Source of the DNA: an uncultured bacterium
Lineage (GTDB): Bacteria; Patescibacteriota; Patescibacteriia; UBA1558; GWA2-36-10
Assembly: GCA_903855135.1 (NCBI GenBank)
Contig: CAINYB010000007.1
Span: forward strand, 8,402 to 72,401
Direction of reading: 5' to 3'
Length of the DNA stretch: 64,000 nt
The position numbers were made by a program, and so were the translations under genes. How positions within the stretch are numbered: the stretch's first letter is position 1; every line of letters starts with the position of its first letter. The notes under the pieces are model-generated. The model was not told where the DNA came from. It saw only the letters and a list, made by a program, of their open reading frames with translations, and searched no databases. Shown in pieces: positions 2,691 to 14,494 of the stretch.

Positions 2691-3260
2691 TTAATCTTTT
2701 AATTTAAATTTCTCTTGTAAAAAATTTTGATAAACTTTGTCCTCCTCCATCATTTGTAAAATAATTTCTCTGATCATATCTGCTTTTTTCTTGTTTATAT
2801 CTTTGCTTTTCCAAATCAAATAATCAGAAATTTTGGGCGAAATACGTAAAGTATATTTGAGATGAATCATATCTCGACCGCTATCTTTATCTAAAGTTTG
2901 TAAAAAATTCGCTAAATCACCAAAACCAGTTTTTGCTTGCCAGATTTTCACAGTAATTTTTTCTTTAAAATGTGGAGAATTAAGCCAGTTTTTTAATTGA
3001 TTAACGTTATATTTTTCTTTTTCTGGTAAAAATAAAACTGCTTTATTTTGCGACAAAGCCAAGGCCATAAAATAGCTGGCTTGATCATCTAAATCGCCGA
3101 AGATCACTAAGGCTTCGATATCCGTCAAAGATTCAGTTGTTTTGGCTTTATTTAGATTACTTAAAACTTCTATTTTAGCTTTTTTAAAATAATGTAAAAT
3201 ATTTTTACTCTCTTCTGGTGAGCCGTTACTATAAAAATAAATCATCATACTGCTTGTCAT
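2691..3260 (-). CDS. Hypothetical protein
   Basis: 189 aa ORF; tight junction with the downstream gene; no recognisable motif. Confidence 0.3.
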   Translation of the reverse strand: MTSSMMIYFYSNGSPEESKNILHYFKKAKIEVLSNLNKAKTTESLTDIEALVIFGDLDDQASYFMALALSQNKAVLFLPEKEKYNVNQLKNWLNSPHFKEKITVKIWQAKTGFGDLANFLQTLDKDSGRDMIHLKYTLRISPKISDYLIWKSKDINKKKADMIREIILQMMEEDKVYQNFLQEKFKLKD

Positions 3261-4246
3261 TAAATATTTAAAAATTCACCAGCTATATCCCTCGCTATCT
3301 GGGTGGCAATATCTTCTGGCTTATGAAAATTACTTAAAACCCATAAAGTCTTGATGATAGCTGAAGACCAAGAACAGCCGACTAAGTGAATACCAAATTT
3401 GGCTGGATTTAAATACACGGGATGATAAAAAATCACTGGTATCGTCAAATCTTTAATAATTTTTACTTGCTCTTCAGTCAAACTTTCTCTTTGCATTTTC
3501 ACTAAAATCCCTTGATAATTTTTGGCAATATTTTTTATACCTTGCCAATCATCACTTAAACTATTATCTAAAATAAGTAGTTTACTATTAATTTTATTAA
3601 AAATTTTAGTGGCTTTTTTTGGATAGCTTAAATCACTTTTTAAACTAATACCAAAATCTACTTTAGCTAAATAATCATTATCTAAACTACTAAAAAAATA
3701 ATTATTTTTTTGTCTTTCTAAGTTAGCTTTAGTGCCCAGCACTAAACGACTGCCAAACATGATGCTAGGATAAGGTAAAGTTTCAGTCGCTACTTGTAAA
3801 GCATTGATTAAATTGGCTCGCAAAGAAAAACCGCCATAATTTGCTATCAGACTTTGCGCTAAATCTTTTTTGTCTCGCAAATACAAACCACTCATCTGCG
3901 CACCAGTTAAAACTATAGTTTTGTTGATATTTTGCAATAAAAAAGTCAAAGCATTAGCGGTCAAAATTAACTGCTCTACTTTAGAAACGATAATAAAGCT
4001 GTCATAATTTTTTGCCTGCAAACTAATAAATTTAGCCATTTTCTCCCATAATTCAGGTCCAACTATTTCTTCTTCACCACTTAAAAAAACTACTTTAGTA
4101 TCAGCTAAAATATTAAGCTCTGGCATAGTGTTGAGCCAAGCAGAGATATCTTCCTCTTGGTTCACCATTAAGACTTCTTTATTTTTAGCCATTGTCCAGG
4201 TGCCACCAGCTAAGATGATGCAAATTTTCTTTTTCTGTGCTGTCAT
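3260..4246 (-). CDS. Asparaginase-family protein (divergent)
   Basis: N-terminal ILAGGTWTM resembles the asparaginase TGGTIAG motif; IVLTGAQMSG resembles the second asparaginase block. Confidence 0.45.
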   Translation of the reverse strand: MTAQKKKICIILAGGTWTMAKNKEVLMVNQEEDISAWLNTMPELNILADTKVVFLSGEEEIVGPELWEKMAKFISLQAKNYDSFIIVSKVEQLILTANALTFLLQNINKTIVLTGAQMSGLYLRDKKDLAQSLIANYGGFSLRANLINALQVATETLPYPSIMFGSRLVLGTKANLERQKNNYFFSSLDNDYLAKVDFGISLKSDLSYPKKATKIFNKINSKLLILDNSLSDDWQGIKNIAKNYQGILVKMQRESLTEEQVKIIKDLTIPVIFYHPVYLNPAKFGIHLVGCSWSSAIIKTLWVLSNFHKPEDIATQIARDIAGEFLNI

Positions 4247-5697: not shown

Positions 5698-7164
5698 TTA
5701 ATTTTTTGCAAAATAGGTCTCAATCGCCTGCTCTGCTTCTGTGCATTTTATAAAATCTTTATAGCCAGGAGCACTCTCATCTGGCATCATACCAGTGCTA
5801 CAGTCATTGCTCCATAATAATTTATCTTCATATGCATGTAATGGCCCTAGACCACCAGCGCTACAAAATGCCCCGTTGTCTGCACCAAAAGCTAAAAACT
5901 TTTCGTTAGACCAATTGTTATAATTTGGTGTGATTGTTAAAACAAAAGCTCCGTTATACAAAAATTGTTTAATGCTACCAAAATTTGCTTCTTTTTTAAA
6001 ATCAGCAAATTCTTTATTAAAGCCATCTACTTGCGCGCATTCATTTGGATCACCAAAAATATCATACCCTAAACTTTGTTTATTTATTTCTTTATACAAA
6101 CTCCAATTTTCTATTTGGCCGATGTTATTTTCAATAAATTTAAAATTATCCCAAATTTTTTGATGCATACTTAATTCATCGCCACGAGTATAAATAATAA
6201 ATAAATTATTATCTTTTATAAAAACTGTTAGTTTATCATATGAAAAATCTTCATCTTTACTATAGCCATAAAATACTTGGGCTGGATAATTATCAATTAA
6301 AATATTTCTTTCAAATTTTTGATAATACATATCACTCTTAGCATTTTCTGCTTCTTGCCATTGTTTAATAGTTTTAAAACTAGTGTTCTCTGAGACCAAG
6401 ATGCTCATCGCACCATAACCCTCAGTATTAATATCTTCAAAGTAAACAAAATCCGGATAACCAGAACAATATTCAGGCATTATTATGCCGTCTGGATAAT
6501 TAAAAAAATAATGATATTTATCATTGATATATAAATTATCATAGCTATAAATAGCTGAAAACTTTTTAGTAAAATTAGCTATTTTAAAACTACGCAAAAT
6601 ATTATCTTGCACAACTGGGTTACTAATAAAACGAGTATTAATTTCAAATAAAACATTATTTTTAATAAAAACTGTTTTTTTACTCTGCCCTTTTTCAATA
6701 ACCACTTGACTTTGATCTGATATCTCTGAATTAGGATAGCTACTCTCTAAATAAGTAACCAAAGCTTTATTTCCGTCTGTTTTGATTTGTTTTTCTACCA
6801 CGCGCTTTTTATTGAATTTCTGTAAATATTCATTTTCTTTTTCCAACCATTGGTCTAAAGAGGAAAAATTTTGTGGTGAAGTAACTATTGAAATTCCATC
6901 AAAATAAAAATCTTGTGGATATTCTTCAACAAAAACCGGATTATCATTACCAGAACAATGAGATTTTTGCTCTAAATACTTAGGATATTTAAAAGAATAA
7001 TTATAAGTTTGATTATGATAAGTATTTAATAACTTATTTTCTTTATTTTTTTGGTAAAACAAAAAGCTAGCCAAAATAATAATGGCTATTATGCTAATAA
7101 TTAAAATTTTATTCTTTTTAAACATAGCTATTTTATTTACTCTAATTATATAAAAATTTGACAA
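5698..7164 (-). CDS. Secreted/membrane-anchored hypothetical protein
   Basis: 488 aa; N-terminal signal-anchor (MFKKNKILIISIIAIIILASFLF); Asn/Tyr-rich. Confidence 0.35.
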   Translation of the reverse strand: MSNFYIIRVNKIAMFKKNKILIISIIAIIILASFLFYQKNKENKLLNTYHNQTYNYSFKYPKYLEQKSHCSGNDNPVFVEEYPQDFYFDGISIVTSPQNFSSLDQWLEKENEYLQKFNKKRVVEKQIKTDGNKALVTYLESSYPNSEISDQSQVVIEKGQSKKTVFIKNNVLFEINTRFISNPVVQDNILRSFKIANFTKKFSAIYSYDNLYINDKYHYFFNYPDGIIMPEYCSGYPDFVYFEDINTEGYGAMSILVSENTSFKTIKQWQEAENAKSDMYYQKFERNILIDNYPAQVFYGYSKDEDFSYDKLTVFIKDNNLFIIYTRGDELSMHQKIWDNFKFIENNIGQIENWSLYKEINKQSLGYDIFGDPNECAQVDGFNKEFADFKKEANFGSIKQFLYNGAFVLTITPNYNNWSNEKFLAFGADNGAFCSAGGLGPLHAYEDKLLWSNDCSTGMMPDESAPGYKDFIKCTEAEQAIETYFAKN

Positions 7165-7186
7165 TTATCGCCACATCTCACATAAT
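7158..7186 (+). promoter_or_regulatory. sigma70-type promoter (TTGACA-17-CATAAT), copy A of a duplicated ~72-bp promoter module
   Basis: TTGACA 7158-7163, CATAAT 7181-7186; 45 nt identical to 8527-8571. Confidence 0.55.
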
Positions 7187-7213
7187 GCATTTATATTAAC
7201 TAAATAAAAATTT

Positions 7214-7798
7214 ATGAACAAATGGGACCAAATATTTACTACTAATCCACAATACAAACCATTAAATGAAATTTTTTTGGCTGAATTATTAGAAAAAATT
7301 AAAAAAGAAACTAATCCTAATCCCAAAAAAATGATTGATCTTGGTTGTGGCACAGCAAAAACGGTTCTGCAATTCTCAAAACTTGGTTTTGAAGTGACTG
7401 GTTTAGACAATTCTATAGTGGCTTTAAAAAAATTACAAGAAGAAATTGATAATTCTAAAGAACAAAATATCACCTTAATAAACGCTGATTTAAATAATTA
7501 TAACCTTACTTTAGAAGCTGACATTTTTCTATGTAATTTTGTATATGCATTTATAGATAATAAAGAATTCTTTCTCAAAGAAGTGGCTGAATGTTTACGT
7601 GATGATTCTGTATTTATCTTAATAACACCGGTGATACATAAAGAAATAATTTACACGGAAGAAGATAAAACTAAAATTGCTGTAGATTTTGAAGAAACTT
7701 TAAAATTATTAAAAAATATTTTTTCTAGCGTTGATGTTTATCATCATGACTATATTGGTACTAGAGAAGATTATGTAACATTTCTCATTAAAAAATAA
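7214..7798 (+). CDS. Class I SAM-dependent methyltransferase
   Basis: 194 aa; motif I LGCGTAKTVLQF and acidic loop GLDNS typical of the Rossmann MTase fold. Confidence 0.65.
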   Translation: MNKWDQIFTTNPQYKPLNEIFLAELLEKIKKETNPNPKKMIDLGCGTAKTVLQFSKLGFEVTGLDNSIVALKKLQEEIDNSKEQNITLINADLNNYNLTLEADIFLCNFVYAFIDNKEFFLKEVAECLRDDSVFILITPVIHKEIIYTEEDKTKIAVDFEETLKLLKNIFSSVDVYHHDYIGTREDYVTFLIKK

Positions 7799-8595: not shown

Positions 8596-9390
8596 ATGAT
8601 TATCGATAGTCACCTTCATATTTCATATTTAAAAAAACAAAAAACTTTTACAACAATTAAGCGTGATTTGTTGAATTTAATGACTAAAAATAAAGTTGAT
8701 TATGCTATTGTCATACCAGATAACGTTCCCAACCCTCAATGTGCTGACCTTGATGAACTTAGTAAATTAGTCAAAAATGAAAAAAAACTATTTATGATAG
8801 CTACCTTAGCGATCACTAAAATTAATAAAAGCAACCTAGCTCGTATTGACACCATGTTTAAGGAAAAAGAAGCTATTGGCTTTAAAATTTTTCCAGGCCA
8901 TGATCCAATCTACCCTACTGATAAACGTTGGCTACCTATTATTTTATTATGCCAAAAATATAAATTACCCTTTATAATTCATACGGGAGTAAATAGTGGT
9001 CATCCAGAAGTAGCTAAATATAATGACCCAAAATATATTCGGGACTTAGCTTTAAAATTTCCAAAATTAAAAATAATCATTGCTCATTATTTTTGGCCTA
9101 AGCTTGACTATTGTTTTGAAATGACCGAAGGTTTGCCTAATGTATACTTTGATACTTCTGCTCTAGCTGATCCAGAAGTAATAAAAGATAGTGGAGGTAT
9201 CAAAAAAATTAAAGATATTTTAGTTAAAACTATTAAACGTAGACAAGATAGTATTATTTATGGCACAGATTGGCCTATTTGTAGTTTTGAAAAGCATATT
9301 AATTTGATTAAAGCTTTACCAATCAGTAATGAATTAAAAAAAGACATCTTTTTTAGAAACTCTCTAAAACTTTTTCCAATTAAAAAATAA
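8596..9390 (+). CDS. Amidohydrolase-family (TIM-barrel metal-dependent hydrolase) protein
   Basis: 264 aa; N-terminal IIDSHLHIS metal-binding His pair; internal His and Asp positions consistent with amidohydrolase_2. Confidence 0.55.
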   Translation: MIIDSHLHISYLKKQKTFTTIKRDLLNLMTKNKVDYAIVIPDNVPNPQCADLDELSKLVKNEKKLFMIATLAITKINKSNLARIDTMFKEKEAIGFKIFPGHDPIYPTDKRWLPIILLCQKYKLPFIIHTGVNSGHPEVAKYNDPKYIRDLALKFPKLKIIIAHYFWPKLDYCFEMTEGLPNVYFDTSALADPEVIKDSGGIKKIKDILVKTIKRRQDSIIYGTDWPICSFEKHINLIKALPISNELKKDIFFRNSLKLFPIKK

Positions 9391-9439
9391 TTTAAAAAGG
9401 CTGATGGCATCGAATCGCAATGATTCAACTCCATCAGCC
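9383..9439 (-). terminator. Intrinsic terminator of the radical-SAM operon
   Basis: 9-bp stem ggctgatgg/ccatcagcc (9399-9439) followed on the minus strand by the U-run TTTTTAAATTATTTTTTAATT. Confidence 0.6.
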
Positions 9440-9455
9440 CCGAACTCTCTACCAG

Positions 9456-9587
9456 TTACTTCTTGGTGCTGGGAGAGGGTGTGGTGGTGGTTGGCTTGAC
9501 AGCCGGTGCTTCGCTGGCGTCAGATTTCTTCTTGACGCTGAGCTTTTCCACCTTTTGGCTGTCCATCACAGCCTTACATTTGCTCAT
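9456..9587 (-). CDS. Small ORF (43 aa, Lys/Thr/Pro-rich) translationally coupled to the upstream gene; candidate precursor peptide or small basic protein
   Basis: Not in the ORF track (<60 aa). Its ATG overlaps the TGA of the YkgJ-like gene (ATGA); AGGAG lies 8 nt upstream; peptide MSKCKAVMDSQKVEKLSVKKKSDASEAPAVKPTTTTPSPSTKK; lies inside the operon before its terminator. Confidence 0.35.
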   Translation of the reverse strand: MSKCKAVMDSQKVEKLSVKKKSDASEAPAVKPTTTTPSPSTKK

Positions 9588-10159
9588 GGCCGTTTCTCCT
9601 TTCTGTTTGGCCTGATGTCCTGCAGACAAGCAAGAGTCAGGTAGCGGTTAGAGCCTTCTGGAAACTTAGTAATGTCGTCAACAGATTGAAAGGTCTTGAT
9701 GACGACTGCAAAGAGCGAGTGGGTCATCCTTTGTATCAATTTAATAGCGCTTTGTTTGAAAACTTCATTATCTTGATGCTCATTAGCGAATTGACAATCC
9801 AAATGGAGCACTAAATAAACCTTACCATCTTCGCTAATGAAATTCAATGGATAGAGCCTACAGACCAATGGACGAATTTGATGTATGGTACAGAGACGAT
9901 TTAAACAAAGCGGACAAGGTGGTTTGACCTGTTCAATGTTGATCGGTTGACCACCAGAAAAGGGGTTAATGAAGTTGATACCGTCGTTGACTTCAAGCAA
10001 CGAGACACCAGCTTCGAATAGAACATCTGCTTCTGCCGGTAAAAGCCACATATACCCCTTACAATCTTCATCGTGGCAATTCTGACAGACAGTACTGATG
10101 CCCACCAACAACTCATCTAGGGCGACGTAAAGTTCGTCGATGGTTTTGATTCTTTTCAT
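9584..10159 (-). CDS. Cys-rich metal-binding protein, YkgJ/UPF0153-like (CxxCxxCC-type zinc/iron-chelating domain)
   Basis: Start revised to ATG 10159 (MKRIKT), giving 191 aa. AGGAG 6 nt upstream; the stop of the rSAM gene overlaps this start. Motifs CQNCHDEDC and CTIHQIRPLVCRLYP resemble the C.IY..RP..CR.FP block of the YkgJ family. Confidence 0.5.
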   Translation of the reverse strand: MKRIKTIDELYVALDELLVGISTVCQNCHDEDCKGYMWLLPAEADVLFEAGVSLLEVNDGINFINPFSGGQPINIEQVKPPCPLCLNRLCTIHQIRPLVCRLYPLNFISEDGKVYLVLHLDCQFANEHQDNEVFKQSAIKLIQRMTHSLFAVVIKTFQSVDDITKFPEGSNRYLTLACLQDIRPNRKEKRP

Positions 10160-11070
10160 CAGTTGCTCCTCTCCAAAAGCATTGGGCATGGGGAATTTGT
10201 ATTCAGACAAAATGAGATGTCTATACCAGTGTAGGTTTGGTAACAACAAAAAGTTGGAGAACACACCGTTGCCGGTTGTGCTAAGGTTTCTAGTTGGTGC
10301 CAGCTCTTCTGTTCAGTTATGTCAGCTAAATACAAGTCCGGCTTTGTGACGCCAGCTTCAGAACAAGCATAGACTAGGCCTTCGGCGCTTAAGTAGACCG
10401 ATGACAAATCAACTGTACACCTAATGTCAGGTTTTGATTTTTGGGTCATGCTACTAGCGAACTGACGTAGAATAGCTTGCTGATTGTGACTGAGTGCAAA
10501 CAAGTCTAATGACAACCTAGCCCGGCCAGCTAGGTTGATTTCAGAGACATGGACAAAGCTTGCTCCTAAGTGTCTAGCTAATTTAATTATCTTGTCCAGT
10601 TCGTAGTAGTTAACTGCCGAAACGGTGATATAAACCGAAACAGGAAGACTAGCGGACAACAAAGCAATTGCCTGGCAGACCTTATTAAAACTACCGAGCC
10701 CTCGAATTTTATCATGAGTTGCAGCTGAGGCGCCATCGAGACTGACGCCGATTGATTGAAGACAATTGGTTAATTTTCTGGCCTTAGAACCATCAATCAG
10801 CCAACCATTCGTGAGTAGTCCGATGTTGTCTATGCCAAATGCGTGGGCATGATTCAGGAGTTCAAATAGGTCTTGACGCATCAACGGTTCACCGCCAGTA
10901 ATCAGGAGTCTTTGCGCACCGAGTTGAATCATGTCTCCAATTGCTTGTTTGGCTTGTTTGGTAGTTAGACTGCGGCCACCGGAGTGGCCGCAGTCAGTTA
11001 TGCAATGGCGGCATAGGAGATTGCAGAGTCTTGTGATCTCCCAATGCCATTCATGGAAATGGTTTGACAC
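10159..11070 (-). CDS. Radical SAM/SPASM-domain enzyme (peptide-modifying maturase-like)
   Basis: 303 aa; CNLLCRHC = Cx3Cx2C near the N-terminus; C-terminal Cys cluster (CSPTFCCY...C...C) typical of the SPASM auxiliary Fe-S domain. Confidence 0.8.
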   Translation of the reverse strand: MSNHFHEWHWEITRLCNLLCRHCITDCGHSGGRSLTTKQAKQAIGDMIQLGAQRLLITGGEPLMRQDLFELLNHAHAFGIDNIGLLTNGWLIDGSKARKLTNCLQSIGVSLDGASAATHDKIRGLGSFNKVCQAIALLSASLPVSVYITVSAVNYYELDKIIKLARHLGASFVHVSEINLAGRARLSLDLFALSHNQQAILRQFASSMTQKSKPDIRCTVDLSSVYLSAEGLVYACSEAGVTKPDLYLADITEQKSWHQLETLAQPATVCSPTFCCYQTYTGIDISFCLNTNSPCPMLLERSN

Positions 11071-11089
11071 TGCAGTTGCCTCCTGTTCG

Positions 11090-12385
11090 TTAGACCGCTT
11101 TTAGAGCATTGACTGCAATCAACTTGCTGACCAATGATCGTATTTCTGGTTCGCTAACAAAATCCAAAAAGGCCGCTATCAACTCAGCTTCATCACATTC
11201 AGCTTGAGTGATAATGTGCTGGATGATTCTGGCTGTAAGTTCGTCAAGTTGAATGGTTTGATAACGAGTTACTAGATAGACTTCGGCGTGAAAACTATTG
11301 AGCTTGGTGAAAGTGTCAGGGACTAATCGGCGATATTCAGTAGTAAAAGTTTCCGGTAAGTCCAGCGGTTCCGGCAGTCTATTGACAATCGGCTGACGCA
11401 AATTTGGATTTTCGCGGATAGCGTAATCAATACAAAAACCCGTCGAGCAACTACAATCGACTTTGCAGCCACAAAGGCAATCGGTGACAACTGGACATGA
11501 CAAACATGGTTCAGTCACCCAAGACAGTTTTCTAAACTCATCAAGTTGGCTTTTTGCCCAGATTTTTTGGATTGGTTCATCTAGGATATTGCCGTAGATA
11601 ATCTCTGATTGATTGCAAATGCGAACATCTCCATCAGGGTTGATTGCAGCAAAAGTGATGCCCACGCCACAATTAGCAGTCATTCTTTCTGACAGCAGTC
11701 GATTGTCTAGACAGTATGGTATAGCCGTGCCAAAACCAACAGCAATACCAAAGTCATCACGAGCCCGAATCATCTGACTCAACGCGACTTTGAATTGCTC
11801 AAGAGAAGGTTTCAACTCAGTGGAACTTTGGCTACCCAAACCACCATCTTCAAATCGATCGACGAAAACAGATTCCATGCCTAACTGATGGGCCTTAGCA
11901 ATGATGTTGTAGATCTGATCGTAGTTCCAGGCGGTTAAAACCGGGATACATCGGACATCAAAACCAGCAGCTACATAACTCTCAATAGTTCTGATGGTTT
12001 GCTTGTATCCACCAAAACGTCGAGTGTGCCGCTCGTGTACACCCTCATCACCATGAAGTGGTACTCCAATACAGGCTAATTTATTTGACAAATCAATCAG
12101 ATTGCGGACTCCGTTAGTAACAATGGTAACAGAAGAACGTTGAGCTAGAAGCTCAATGTATTCGTTAAGCTGCCTCACTCCAAGTAACGATGGTTCTCCA
12201 CCAATAAGATAGACGTGAGGAACCCATGATTCGTAAATGGAATGAACAATTCTGTCCATTTTAGTCTTGTTAAAAGGTTGCTCTCGTCTTGGGTTGTAAC
12301 AAAACACACAGTTGCAGTTGCAACCGTACGTAGTTTCAATGTGGACGAGGTGAGGAACACTCGGTATCTCTAGTTTTTGCATCAT
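11090..12385 (-). CDS. Radical SAM/SPASM-domain enzyme with ~100-aa C-terminal extension
   Basis: 431 aa; TYGCNCNCVFCYN (Cx3Cx2C); SPASM Cys cluster CLSCPVVTDCLCGCKVDCSC. Confidence 0.8.
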   Translation of the reverse strand: MMQKLEIPSVPHLVHIETTYGCNCNCVFCYNPRREQPFNKTKMDRIVHSIYESWVPHVYLIGGEPSLLGVRQLNEYIELLAQRSSVTIVTNGVRNLIDLSNKLACIGVPLHGDEGVHERHTRRFGGYKQTIRTIESYVAAGFDVRCIPVLTAWNYDQIYNIIAKAHQLGMESVFVDRFEDGGLGSQSSTELKPSLEQFKVALSQMIRARDDFGIAVGFGTAIPYCLDNRLLSERMTANCGVGITFAAINPDGDVRICNQSEIIYGNILDEPIQKIWAKSQLDEFRKLSWVTEPCLSCPVVTDCLCGCKVDCSCSTGFCIDYAIRENPNLRQPIVNRLPEPLDLPETFTTEYRRLVPDTFTKLNSFHAEVYLVTRYQTIQLDELTARIIQHIITQAECDEAELIAAFLDFVSEPEIRSLVSKLIAVNALKAV

Positions 12386-12389
12386 GCAC

Positions 12390-12695
12390 CTACCTTCTTG
12401 GGTTTTGAGCTATTTGTAAAATAGCCTCAAATGAATCTTTTGCTGACGCTCGGTTACGCTTGCTTACTTTGCAACGAGTGCAATGATGTGTGATGATATA
12501 GCCATCGGATTTGTTCTCAATTGAAATCGGCTCCATCAGACCACCGCACTGGTTTTCGCGATCACCAGGATCATTGTCAACATGCTTACTGTAAAGGCAG
12601 CTTGGACAATGGTTAGTGTACCCATCGCCTGTAACTTGCGTTCCACAGTGTTCACATGTGAAGTTCTCCTGGCGACGTGTAAAACGTTTTGCCAC
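12390..12695 (-). CDS. RNHCP-type double zinc-ribbon protein
   Basis: Start revised to GTG 12695, giving 101 aa. AAGGAGG 7 nt upstream. Two CxxC...CxxC ribbons (CEHC/CPSC and C...CTRC) with an NHCP motif (YTNHCPSC) as in the RNHCP domain family. Confidence 0.55.
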   Translation of the reverse strand: MAKRFTRRQENFTCEHCGTQVTGDGYTNHCPSCLYSKHVDNDPGDRENQCGGLMEPISIENKSDGYIITHHCTRCKVSKRNRASAKDSFEAILQIAQNPRR

Positions 12696-12775
12696 TATGC
12701 TGCCTCCTTTTTTGTCAATGAACTCCACAGCCGTCTTTCTTCAAAGCCGTCTTTGAATTTCAATACGGCTGTCAT
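12695..12775 (-). CDS. Leader mini-ORF (26 aa), possibly leaderless, stop overlapping the RNHCP start (TAGTG)
   Basis: The ATG lies 7 nt after the -10 hexamer; peptide MTAVLKFKDGFEERRLWSSLTKKEAA; the region also forms an inverted repeat cagccgt...acggctg, so it may be a structured leader instead. Confidence 0.2.
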   Translation of the reverse strand: MTAVLKFKDGFEERRLWSSLTKKEAA

Positions 12776-12782
12776 TAATTTA

Positions 12783-12810
12783 ATTATACTCTTTTATAAA
12801 TTTGTGTCAA
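12783..12810 (-). promoter_or_regulatory. sigma70-type promoter of the radical-SAM operon (TTGACA-16-TATAAT)
   Basis: Minus-strand TTGACA at 12810..12805 and TATAAT at 12788..12783; it abuts the upstream terminator hairpin. Confidence 0.6.
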
Positions 12811-12894: not shown

Positions 12895-13713
12895 CTAACT
12901 CCTAATATTAATCAAATTACCACTAGAATATTTTTTTAATCCCCTATTATAAATAAAGATAGTTATGATAAAAAAGATAATACTAAAAATAACAACATAA
13001 ATAAATTTGTCTAAAGCAAAAGTTTGTAATAGCTCGGCTGGTAAAAAAGTAGCAAAGCCAGCAGGAATGACAAAGAAAATAAAAAATTTTAAAAAACCCT
13101 GTACTACTGAAGATGGATTACTAGAAAAAGCAATAAAAGCATGCATGAGATTATTATGTAATACTTCATTACGACCAAGCCAAAAGCTTAATGATCCAAC
13201 TAGAATATAAAAACTTAATAAAATTAAACTAGAAAAAAACCAACCGACTATCAACCAAACACATGAATATAAGGTAAGAGGAAAAAATAAGACAAAAGCT
13301 AATAAAGCAAATATCAAGTCACCCCAAGCGGACAAATCAGTTTTACTTACCAGGGCATGCAAAAGATGATTTTTAGGAAAAGTAAAATAAAAATCTAAAC
13401 CACCATTACTAATTATTTTACCTAAATTATTAGCATTACCAAAAATAGCATTTACCCAACCAAAGCTACCAGCAGCAAAAATCCAAATAGCGATCATTTC
13501 CTGAAAACCAAAACCATTGAGCTTACCAAAGTGTTCAAAGAAAAAATACCATAACAGCAAAAACATCGTATCATTGATGATCATAAAAAATACCTGACTA
13601 AAAAAATTGAAACGAAACTCCATCGCTGAAGCGAGGTTATATTTGGTGTAAAATAAAACAAAATCAAAATTTTTAGCCACCGTTGATATTAACTTTTTTG
13701 ATTCCTTGAGCAT
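12895..13713 (-). CDS. ABC-2 family transporter permease
   Basis: 272 aa; 6 predicted transmembrane helices; overlaps the upstream permease by 41 nt. Confidence 0.55.
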   Translation of the reverse strand: MLKESKKLISTVAKNFDFVLFYTKYNLASAMEFRFNFFSQVFFMIINDTMFLLLWYFFFEHFGKLNGFGFQEMIAIWIFAAGSFGWVNAIFGNANNLGKIISNGGLDFYFTFPKNHLLHALVSKTDLSAWGDLIFALLAFVLFFPLTLYSCVWLIVGWFFSSLILLSFYILVGSLSFWLGRNEVLHNNLMHAFIAFSSNPSSVVQGFLKFFIFFVIPAGFATFLPAELLQTFALDKFIYVVIFSIIFFIITIFIYNRGLKKYSSGNLINIRS

Positions 13714-14494
13714 AAACTATTTTAATTAAAACTATAAAAATAAAAATCCAAATTGTTTGCCTGAGCACTAAAGCCTGCCAGTAAGCTAAATCAAAATTCA
13801 CAAATGTTCTCGCTGGCCCATATAAAATACCTTCAAATGGTAAATAATGGAGAATTTTTTGTAAAAATATTGGGTAAACATCTAGTGGAAATAATAAACC
13901 CCCACCAATAAAAAGTATTTTTTGGTAAATAAAACGCATCGAATCTACATCCTCTACCCAAAAAGCTAACAAGCTACACGTAGCCGAAACTAGAAAATTT
14001 AAAACTAAAGCTAAGATAATAGCTATGATCACCGCAAAAATAATAAACAAATTTAAACTTGGTAATTTAATAAAACAGATTAAAACCAAAACTCCAACAA
14101 ATAATTTAGTAATAAAATTTATAAAAGTCTTGCCTAAAATCGAGCCAAAATAATAACCCACAAAACTATAAGGCTTCGCCAAAGCATAGGCAACATTGCC
14201 ACTTTTTATTTCTTCACCAATTTCCCCGATAATACTAGGATTAGACGTCAAAATGAGCTCTGTCATAAATACATACCAAATCATTCCTGCCAGACTAAAG
14301 CCTGAGATGATTTTGTCTGGCTGATTAGCATATACCACTCGCCACACACCACTCATCACTAAGGTAATCAGTAAAATAAAAATATTGGAATACAACAATT
14401 CTAAAGGATAGGCCAATCTGTCCATCACAGAGACCTTGAAAATGCTAAAATATTTATTTAATTTTCTGTAAATTTTGTTCATAGATATTAGCAA
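13673..14494 (-). CDS. ABC-2 family transporter permease
   Basis: 273 aa; polytopic; overlaps the ATPase gene by 41 nt. Confidence 0.55.
   Translation of the reverse strand: MLISMNKIYRKLNKYFSIFKVSVMDRLAYPLELLYSNIFILLITLVMSGVWRVVYANQPDKIISGFSLAGMIWYVFMTELILTSNPSIIGEIGEEIKSGNVAYALAKPYSFVGYYFGSILGKTFINFITKLFVGVLVLICFIKLPSLNLFIIFAVIIAIILALVLNFLVSATCSLLAFWVEDVDSMRFIYQKILFIGGGLLFPLDVYPIFLQKILHYLPFEGILYGPARTFVNFDLAYWQALVLRQTIWIFIFIVLIKIVYAQGIKKVNINGG

Follow-up and report, generated by a model that had tools for sequence, protein, structure and literature searches.

Here, we report a small gene at the 3′ end of a radical S-adenosylmethionine (rSAM) operon in the genome of an uncultured Patescibacteriota bacterium. 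The gene lies on the minus strand at positions 9456..9587 of the window (the whole 64,000-nucleotide stretch of contig CAINYB010000007.1 that was analysed), from its ATG (9587–9585) to its TAA (9458–9456), and its 43 codons specify the peptide MSKCKAVMDSQKVEKLSVKKKSDASEAPAVKPTTTTPSPSTKK. Codons 1 to 21 (9525..9587, minus strand) form a conserved head with the family motif M-S-K-C-K-A-V-[LM]-D-[SG]-x-K-[VI]-x-x-[IL]-x-[VI]-[KR]-x-K, and codons 22 to 43 (9459..9524, minus strand) form a hypervariable hydrophilic tail that holds a Thr/Pro tract. All of the support presented below is computational.

The operon comprises five tightly packed genes on the minus strand, between a promoter-like site and a terminator: a gene for an RNHCP-domain zinc-ribbon protein (12390..12695; 101 amino acids [aa]; the first gene), one for a radical SAM/SPASM enzyme (11090..12385; 431 aa), one for a second radical-SAM enzyme (10159..11070; 303 aa), one for a CxxCxxCC (YkgJ-like) Cys-rich protein (9584..10159; 191 aa), and the small open reading frame (ORF). 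The ATG of the CxxCxxCC gene overlaps the preceding rSAM stop by 1 nucleotide (nt). The ATG of the peptide gene, in turn, overlaps the TGA (9586–9584) of the CxxCxxCC gene, giving ATGA, and a Shine-Dalgarno (SD) sequence, AGGAG (9596..9600, minus strand), is found 8 nt 5′ of it, within the end of the CxxCxxCC gene. The original prediction had described a 43-aa ORF coupled in this way to a YkgJ-like gene, with an SD sequence at this spacing; the coordinates confirm both points and add the strand, which it had not given.

The intrinsic terminator (9390..9441, minus strand) is a two-tier hairpin (9441–9397) followed by a U run. It folds with −28.9 kcal/mol (z = −5.8), a stability reached by 0 of 200 shuffles, and hairpins likewise stand 3′ of the peptide gene in seven other loci (L002, L008, L009, L015, L144, L153, and L159). 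A terminator after the ORF had been predicted at a distance of 17 nt; the terminator holds, and the hairpin begins about 14 to 16 nt past the peptide-gene stop. The promoter-like site, TTGACA-16-TATAAT (12783..12810, minus strand), lies upstream of the RNHCP gene and is so called from its consensus match alone; it agrees with the sigma-70 consensus at 12 of 12 positions and is the sole such match in the 4.2-kb region scanned.

Recurrence and conservation of the small gene

A 43-codon ORF alone could have arisen by chance; judged from homologous sequences, its conservation did not. Genomes were scanned with the neighbouring CxxCxxCC protein as the seed (true homologues taken as tblastn E ≤ 1e-28; n = 18), and a peptide gene was found directly downstream of the CxxCxxCC gene in all 18 homologous loci. 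The first candidate phyla radiation (CPR) loci found through CxxCxxCC homologues each carried, at the corresponding position, a small ORF whose product starts MSKCKAV. The 18 loci span Staskawicz-, Nealson-, Moranii-, and Berkelbacteria, Saccharimonas, and Parcubacteria, and the closest locus in the CxxCxxCC homologue search carries the name Candidatus Magasanikbacteria. A few bins are labelled otherwise (including Woesearchaeota and Methanoregula), labels that are doubtful and may be binning errors.

A second scan, of metagenomes, used the back-translated peptide N terminus as a DNA pattern, and its counts are lower bounds. At least 120 metagenome contigs match this N-terminal coding pattern. 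Linkage was tested, among the matches listed, on the 89 unique loci from the pattern scan that had 700 nt or more of upstream sequence: a CxxCxxCC gene stands immediately upstream on the same strand in 73, and other cassette genes are present in 15 more, which brings the loci with cassette genes to 88 of 89; the last has a B12-binding radical-SAM gene instead. The pattern and neighbour approaches are independent of each other, and 5 of the 18 neighbour-found copies fall outside the DNA pattern (MSKCRAVMDS..., MSKCKATLDPDR..., VSKCKPLLDS..., MSKCKTVLDA..., and MSKCKPILDM...). The third approach, a profile search of 1.84 billion protein-cluster representatives, returned only 31 called peptides, all with an MSKC start.

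Public annotation has largely passed over the gene. The gene caller skipped the ORF in an identical public metagenome contig (L001), the exact 43-aa product is not on record in public gene calls, and the peptide has no match among the models of Pfam, NCBIfam (release 20), or PADLOC. Full-text literature searches on RNHCP, the MSKCKAV peptide, CPR/Patescibacteria pathways combining rSAM enzymes or RiPP recognition elements (RREs) with peptides that are ribosomally synthesized and then post-translationally modified (RiPPs), and YkgJ-rSAM precursor peptides returned nothing relevant. A perfect AGGAGG precedes the gene in 72 of 113 distinct loci, and a 4-mer core of the SD sequence in 89. A longer, 57-aa ORF from the TTG at 9629 was ruled out, as relatives all start at an ATG with an SD sequence and called homologues begin MSKC. 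One apparent cassette variant lacking the peptide (L020/L021) proved to have decayed, its rSAM/SPASM gene being truncated. This decayed cassette (L020, about 3200–3800) lies beside Abi_C and HsdS, and its truncation leaves a stand-alone 96-aa RRE ORF.

Positions fixed by the DNA pattern are invariant by construction in the pattern-found loci (L023–L142), and selection was assessed at those that the pattern does not force. Codon 2, for which the pattern (WSN) also permits Thr, Cys, Trp, Arg, and stop, encodes Ser in 113 of 113 distinct sequences, with all six Ser codons in use. Among the same 113, positions 13, 16, and 18 are always V, I, or L (F), and positions 19 and 21 are K or R in about 94% of sequences, with many synonymous codons at each. 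Pairwise synonymous differences are saturated (pS, 0.77 to 0.92) against nonsynonymous differences (pN) of 0.11 to 0.34 (pN/pS, 0.12 to 0.44), and mean entropy is 1.3 to 1.6 bits at third codon positions versus 0.15 to 0.9 at first and second positions. The peptide frame is open in all loci, and stops occur in the +1 and +2 frames of 67 and 99 of the 113, respectively. A pattern-independent set of 49 peptides, found by neighbour or by profile, shows the same constraint: K3 and C4 are invariant, S2 is present in 48 of 49, and D/E9, K/R12, V/I13, I/L16, and V/I18 are each kept in all 49; T14 (32 of 49) is common, not conserved.

Judged from this codon pattern, purifying selection acts on the protein sequence of the peptide, and the ORF at 9456–9587 is, on comparative grounds, a genuine unannotated small gene that is predicted to be translated. 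The original prediction had placed a translated small gene inside the rSAM operon, with which frame, SD sequence, and conservation agree; the contrast of synonymous and nonsynonymous change in homologous loci, whose absence it had named as a refutation, is present, with pS saturated and residues constant. The same observations bear on an untranslated RNA element at the operon 3′ end, either a hairpin (9557–9573) or a small RNA derived from the 3′ untranslated region. Such an element could draw on a 6-bp hairpin (GGCUGU-GAUGG-ACAGCC) in codons 5 to 11 and on an apparent compensatory change in one locus (L008); however, only 7 of 113 loci retain all six pairs, variation sits at third codon positions, Ser2 alternates between AGY and TCN, and the open frame lies behind a strong SD sequence. 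We consider an RNA element extremely improbable, effectively refuted by the codon pattern.

Anatomy of the peptide

Peptides of the family are 21 to 56 aa long (median, 37), and the conserved unit is residues 1 to 21 only. Conserved lysines are found at K3, K5, K12, K19, and K21, and residues 12 to 21 make up an alternating hydrophobic/basic stretch. Aromatic residues (W, Y, or F) are present in the head of only 3 of 115 peptides, and 107 of the 115 contain exactly one Cys. The tail (0 to 35 aa) is low-complexity and hydrophilic, has K, S, E, A, P, and Q as its main residues, and shows no conserved positions. The shortest complete family member is MSKCKAVLDSKKIKEIKVKKK, and members of 21 to 25 aa are nearly tail-less (0 to 4 residues).

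Tails with at least 40% Thr/Ser/Pro make up only 16 of 115. Because the tail is hypervariable or absent across the family, the Thr/Pro tract of the window does not appear to be a core; by sequence comparison it is a lineage-specific tail, confined to close relatives of the window and without a conserved core. The suggestion that a Thr/Ser/Pro tract serves as a core that rSAM/SPASM enzymes crosslink through Thr-O, as in rotapeptides, was therefore not borne out: the tract is missing from most members, and neither conserved Thr donors nor a conserved core motif was found in the family.

Its basic character had also led to the suggestion of a small nucleic-acid-binding protein, here considered as a small, disordered nucleic-acid- or ribosome-binding protein acting apart from the chemistry of the enzymes. 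The net charge is +6 for the window peptide and +7 at the family median, and every head is basic (+2 to +8), as such a protein would have it. Total charge nevertheless ranges from −2 to +13, tail charge from −5 to +7, and 34 of 115 tails have a neutral or negative net charge. The gene travels with radical-SAM enzymes, never being found away from their genes among the matches listed, and the peptide matches no known small-protein family in Pfam or NCBIfam. We regard a nucleic-acid- or ribosome-binding role as very unlikely.

Cassette enzymes and gene linkage

Homologues of the 431-aa rSAM/SPASM enzyme fall into at least 433 clusters at E ≤ 1e-30, and neither this enzyme nor the second rSAM reaches any NCBIfam equivalog cut-off. 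Over its final ~80 residues, encoded at 11093..11329 (minus strand), the 431-aa enzyme shows strong conservation, and the motif ...YLVTRYQT[IV]xLD... is found there. The C-terminal 107 residues were modelled with AlphaFold2 using 62 homologues; the model has a mean predicted local distance difference test score (pLDDT) of 81 (85 to 90 in the folded part) and consists of three to four strands and then three helices. Foldseek searches of this domain against the PDB returned RREs almost exclusively among the top ~35 matches (best E, 6e-3; probability, 1.0). These were the TruD and LynD heterocyclases, TigE, leader-bound TbiB1, McbB, the PbtF RRE, MccB, MadB, the thioether-forming rSAM enzyme CteB, and PqqD. 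The PqqD Pfam model is weakly matched in 4 of 20 rSAM/SPASM homologues (best E, 0.005); Pfam returned only noise on the RRE-like domain of the window alone, and a profile search of this domain against PDB sequences gave 0 matches. The predicted structure indicates that the enzyme carries an RRE-like fold of the PqqD-like winged-helix type, whose position after the SPASM domain is unusual.

The second rSAM is missing from some cassettes (L043, L073, L118, L143, and L066), so the minimal set is RNHCP, rSAM/SPASM-RRE, CxxCxxCC, and peptide. Natural fusions join RNHCP with rSAM/SPASM (P0037; 534 aa; Nealsonbacteria) and rSAM/SPASM with the second rSAM (about 722 to 731 aa; P0060, P0066, P0074, P0077, P0082, and P0114), which suggests that the cassette proteins act as one complex.

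The CxxCxxCC protein has seven invariant Cys residues, and its gene is nearly always the one immediately upstream of the peptide gene. The window protein matches Pfam PF03692 weakly (E = 7.8e-4; 20.5 bits against a cut-off of 23), and its homologues are also recorded with weak PF03692 matches. Its predicted fold has no PDB match, and searches gave neither an NCBIfam family nor a detectable match to the FliB model. A 226-aa GTG-start ORF (9584–10264, minus strand), which would overlap the rSAM gene by 105 nt, was set aside, as homologue gene calls and the alignment favour 191 aa from the ATG at 10159.

The position of the peptide gene varies among cassettes. It is divergent from, and upstream of, RNHCP in five loci (L026, L049, L083, L129, and L136) and precedes the rSAM/SPASM gene in another (L040). 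L094, L095, and L102 each have a second copy immediately after a B12-binding radical-SAM gene, with a similar arrangement in L082 and L025. The B12-rSAM gene of L094 (3867–5285, plus strand; Pfam B12-binding and Radical_SAM) is divergent from the RNHCP operon, and the subfamily with duplicated copies has peptides of about 50 aa (...KAQE...ATQQSE) and no nearby Amidohydro_2 gene. Among the matches listed, the peptide gene is always next to a radical-SAM enzyme gene, and this linkage is obligate.

Its usual neighbour raises the alternative that the peptide is not a substrate at all. It could belong to the CxxCxxCC protein as a small subunit or as a C-terminal tail that has become detached, where it might, for example, supply Cys4 to bind a metal or cluster or serve the enzyme complex as a docking element. 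The peptide gene is almost always just downstream of the CxxCxxCC gene, with overlaps of 4, 8, 14, or 32 nt across loci. At three loci it is in frame with that gene with no stop between, as an apparent fusion (L019, 2892–3566, protein P0007; L143, about 7535; L144, about 7000–7660). AlphaFold2 gave the tail of the fused P0007 a pLDDT of 74 to 81, with a short strand at C-K-A and a helix; no alignment covers this tail, as the fusion was modelled without free-peptide alignment rows. The rSAM genes of L019 are frameshifted, and the L143 peptide has a 1-nt deletion after codon 12, for which an assembly error or pseudogene is possible. Against a subunit or tail, two of the three fusions lie in frameshifted contigs, some architectures put the peptide gene 3.8 kb from the CxxCxxCC gene on the opposite strand, and elsewhere it stands ahead of rSAM/SPASM or is duplicated behind a B12-rSAM gene without a nearby CxxCxxCC gene. 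The RRE of the rSAM enzyme, moreover, calls for a peptide ligand. A subunit, tail, or docking role is on this balance unlikely.

Other features of the locus concern its surroundings. The operon (window 9400–12800) has a GC content of ~44% versus ~29% in its flanks, and of 30 homologous loci with long flanks, 17 have a cassette that exceeds its surroundings by more than 5 GC points (maximum, +17). The copy in L002 is 97% identical and has PHP and thymidylate kinase genes as upstream neighbours, where the window has ABC-2 permeases. The GC contrast and the differing neighbours suggest horizontal transfer among CPR bacteria or a composition constraint. The two ABC-2-type permease genes (12895–14494, minus strand), directly upstream of the operon, are probably unrelated to peptide export because they are not conserved beside the cassette elsewhere. 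Convergent to the operon is an Amidohydro_2 gene (8596..9390, plus strand; 264 aa) of host-like low GC content; homologues join the cassette in many loci, at about 38 to 66% identity at the lowest and with varying position and orientation, and it is a possible accessory enzyme.

Anti-phage defence of the viperin type was ruled out for the cassette. PADLOC gave only pVip matches, over the generic rSAM core (residues 10–163), and nothing for the other proteins; the similarity is to the generic viperin core only. A scan of viral contigs gave 0 matches, and restriction-modification and Abi neighbours occur in only a few loci.

Proposed modification of the peptide head

The peptide is probably the substrate or precursor of the radical-SAM machinery of its operon and would found a new rSAM RiPP-like family, with the modification in the N-terminal part of the peptide. 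It is the sole conserved small ORF of the cassette, and the substrate role is the best-supported function because the 431-aa enzyme carries the RRE-like domain; on the same basis, the original prediction's candidate function, a substrate of the rSAM/SPASM enzymes, gains ground. The generic features of a RiPP precursor are found here, namely, a short ORF linked to a maturase across taxa (at 18 of 18 genome loci and, among the matches listed, 88 of 89 pattern-found loci) and a maturase with an RRE in its predicted fold.

We infer the binding of the peptide to the RRE, the modified segment, the chemistry, and the role of the product as follows. The peptide would be translated by coupling to the CxxCxxCC gene. 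Its amphipathic stretch, K12-[VI]-x-x-[IL]-x-[VI]-[KR]-x-K21, would dock as a strand on the C-terminal RRE, as leaders do in the TbiB1, LynD, and CteB complexes, and docking would place the invariant S2-K3-C4-K5-A-V-[LM]-D9 segment at the rSAM/SPASM active site. The enzymes would then modify this N-terminal segment, with S2, K3, C4, and D9 as the candidate residues and with help, in most lineages, from the second rSAM, the Fe-S/Zn protein CxxCxxCC, and RNHCP; the C-terminal tail, disordered and hypervariable, would not be a target, and neither would the window's Thr/Pro tract within it.

As to the chemistry, a thioether ring from Cys4 to Asp/Glu9 (C-X4-D/E) is the most plausible single reaction, offered with low confidence and by analogy. 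It is the simplest SPASM-type chemistry for a head that lacks aromatic residues and carries a single invariant Cys followed, five positions on, by an acidic residue that is also invariant. PapB forms Cys-Asp/Glu links in C-X3-D/E motifs and accepts C-Xn-D with n = 0 to 6 (PMC9413430). FliB, a [4Fe-4S]/SAM-dependent lysine N-methyltransferase that acts on a protein substrate, has a similar Cys motif (PMC8598068), and by this analogy the peptide may have a third Fe-S enzyme acting on it, the CxxCxxCC protein. The likeness to FliB, which is a lead only, lies in its PF03692-like Cys motif, set beside the weak PF03692 match of the CxxCxxCC protein, and in the conserved lysines of the peptide; the CxxCxxCC protein, however, lacks a detectable sequence match to the FliB model.

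The system resembles an RRE-dependent rSAM/SPASM RiPP pathway of the ranthipeptide or peptide-cofactor types and lies outside every defined family. Like the ranthipeptides (PapA/PapB, freyrasin; SCIFF/CteB, thermocellin), it pairs a short Cys-containing ribosomal peptide with an RRE-bearing rSAM/SPASM enzyme; the invariant C4-X4-[D/E]9 falls within the PapB range of C-Xn-D/E (n = 0 to 6; PMC9413430), and CteB is among the RRE fold matches. The family is nevertheless not ranthipeptide/PapB or SCIFF by maturase score (PapB model NF047865, 37.4 bits against a cut-off of 340) or by a Cys-rich C-terminal core, since its single Cys is at residue 4, whereas theirs form a C-terminal multi-Cys core; the RRE here is at the enzyme C terminus, and there are extra partners (RNHCP, CxxCxxCC, and the second rSAM).

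Mycofactocin (MftA/B/C) and pyrroloquinoline quinone (PQQ; PqqA/D/E) are alike in combining a short peptide, an rSAM/SPASM enzyme, and a PqqD-type RRE, with no dedicated exporter, often a hydrolase alongside, and a modified motif more conserved than the enzymes. MftC and PqqE are also the best NCBIfam and PDB sequence matches of the 431-aa enzyme. Membership in neither was found: TIGR03962 (MftC) scores 72.6 bits against 265 and TIGR02109 (PqqE) 65.2 against 381, the peptide lacks Tyr and with it both the C-terminal Val-Tyr of MftA (...GVY) and the Glu-X3-Tyr of PQQ, and the conserved motif is N-terminal in a head without an aromatic residue.

Two-rSAM peptide cassettes in NCBIfam/TIGRFAMs (HxsABCD, SynChlorMet ScmE/F, and GeoRSP) share an rSAM pair with a very short conserved peptide gene that is often uncalled. 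Matches to the HxsC, ScmE/F, and GeoRSP models are weak, all below cut-offs, and these cassettes differ in peptide motif and lack RNHCP and CxxCxxCC partners. Follower-peptide RiPPs of the bottromycin type offer a general parallel to the proposed topology, an N-terminal modified segment with the recognition sequence downstream, although they use YcaO and other enzymes of unrelated enzymology.

Several points weigh against a substrate with an N-terminal modified part. Most RiPPs have an N-terminal leader, and the polarity seen here, a conserved N-terminal "core" followed by a hypervariable tail, is unusual. Conserved proteases or exporters were not found in the cassette, the Foldseek E-values for the RRE-like domain are modest (6e-3 at best), and sequence profiles see PqqD only weakly. 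Invariance is partly circular for the pattern-found loci, for which the neighbour-found and profile-found sets served as controls, and the in-frame CxxCxxCC-peptide loci possibly point to a subunit or tail.

A rival reading is a classical RiPP precursor, in which the 21-residue head is the RRE-bound leader and the variable tail (here Thr/Pro-rich) is a core for promiscuous rSAM enzymes, with, e.g., epimerisation, C-methylation, or a Thr-O ether. A leader at the N terminus and a core at the C terminus is the common RiPP layout, and hypervariable cores occur in other RiPP families. The predicted RRE fits this orientation, and the B12-rSAM gene that adjoins second peptide copies belongs to a class that includes peptide C-methyltransferases. 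Yet complete members exist with tails of 0 to 4 residues, such as the shortest peptide above, no tail position is conserved, Thr/Ser/Pro-rich tails are few, and invariant K3, C4, and D9 are hard to square with a mere leader. The classical orientation is consequently unlikely, and we retain the substrate with its modified part in the head.

Taken further, the cassette could represent a new class of rSAM-modified peptides with an inverted topology, in which an N-terminal modified segment is followed by a recognition strand and a disposable tail and is served by a C-terminal RRE and a four-protein Fe-S/Zn machinery (RNHCP, rSAM/SPASM, rSAM, and CxxCxxCC). The product in this proposal, which we hold to be quite possible though short of probable, could be an intracellular peptide-derived cofactor or a modified small protein, not an antibiotic; such a product is possible because the system occurs in many minimal-genome CPR lineages, has no exporter, and has a motif more conserved than its enzymes.

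CPR bacteria (Patescibacteria) have tiny genomes and few recognised biosynthetic pathways. Here, a five-gene cassette with at least 433 enzyme clusters has been kept by, or exchanged among, many of their lineages, and its central element, the peptide gene, is absent from available annotation (31 called representatives among 1.84 billion clusters). The gene most likely marks an undescribed peptide-modification system that is widespread in CPR. The peptide turns a "radical SAM/hypothetical" operon into a testable system with a defined 21-residue substrate and provides the first functional handles on RNHCP and YkgJ-like CxxCxxCC, domains of unknown function. An N-terminal core, if true, would add an unusual geometry of substrate recognition to RiPP enzymology.

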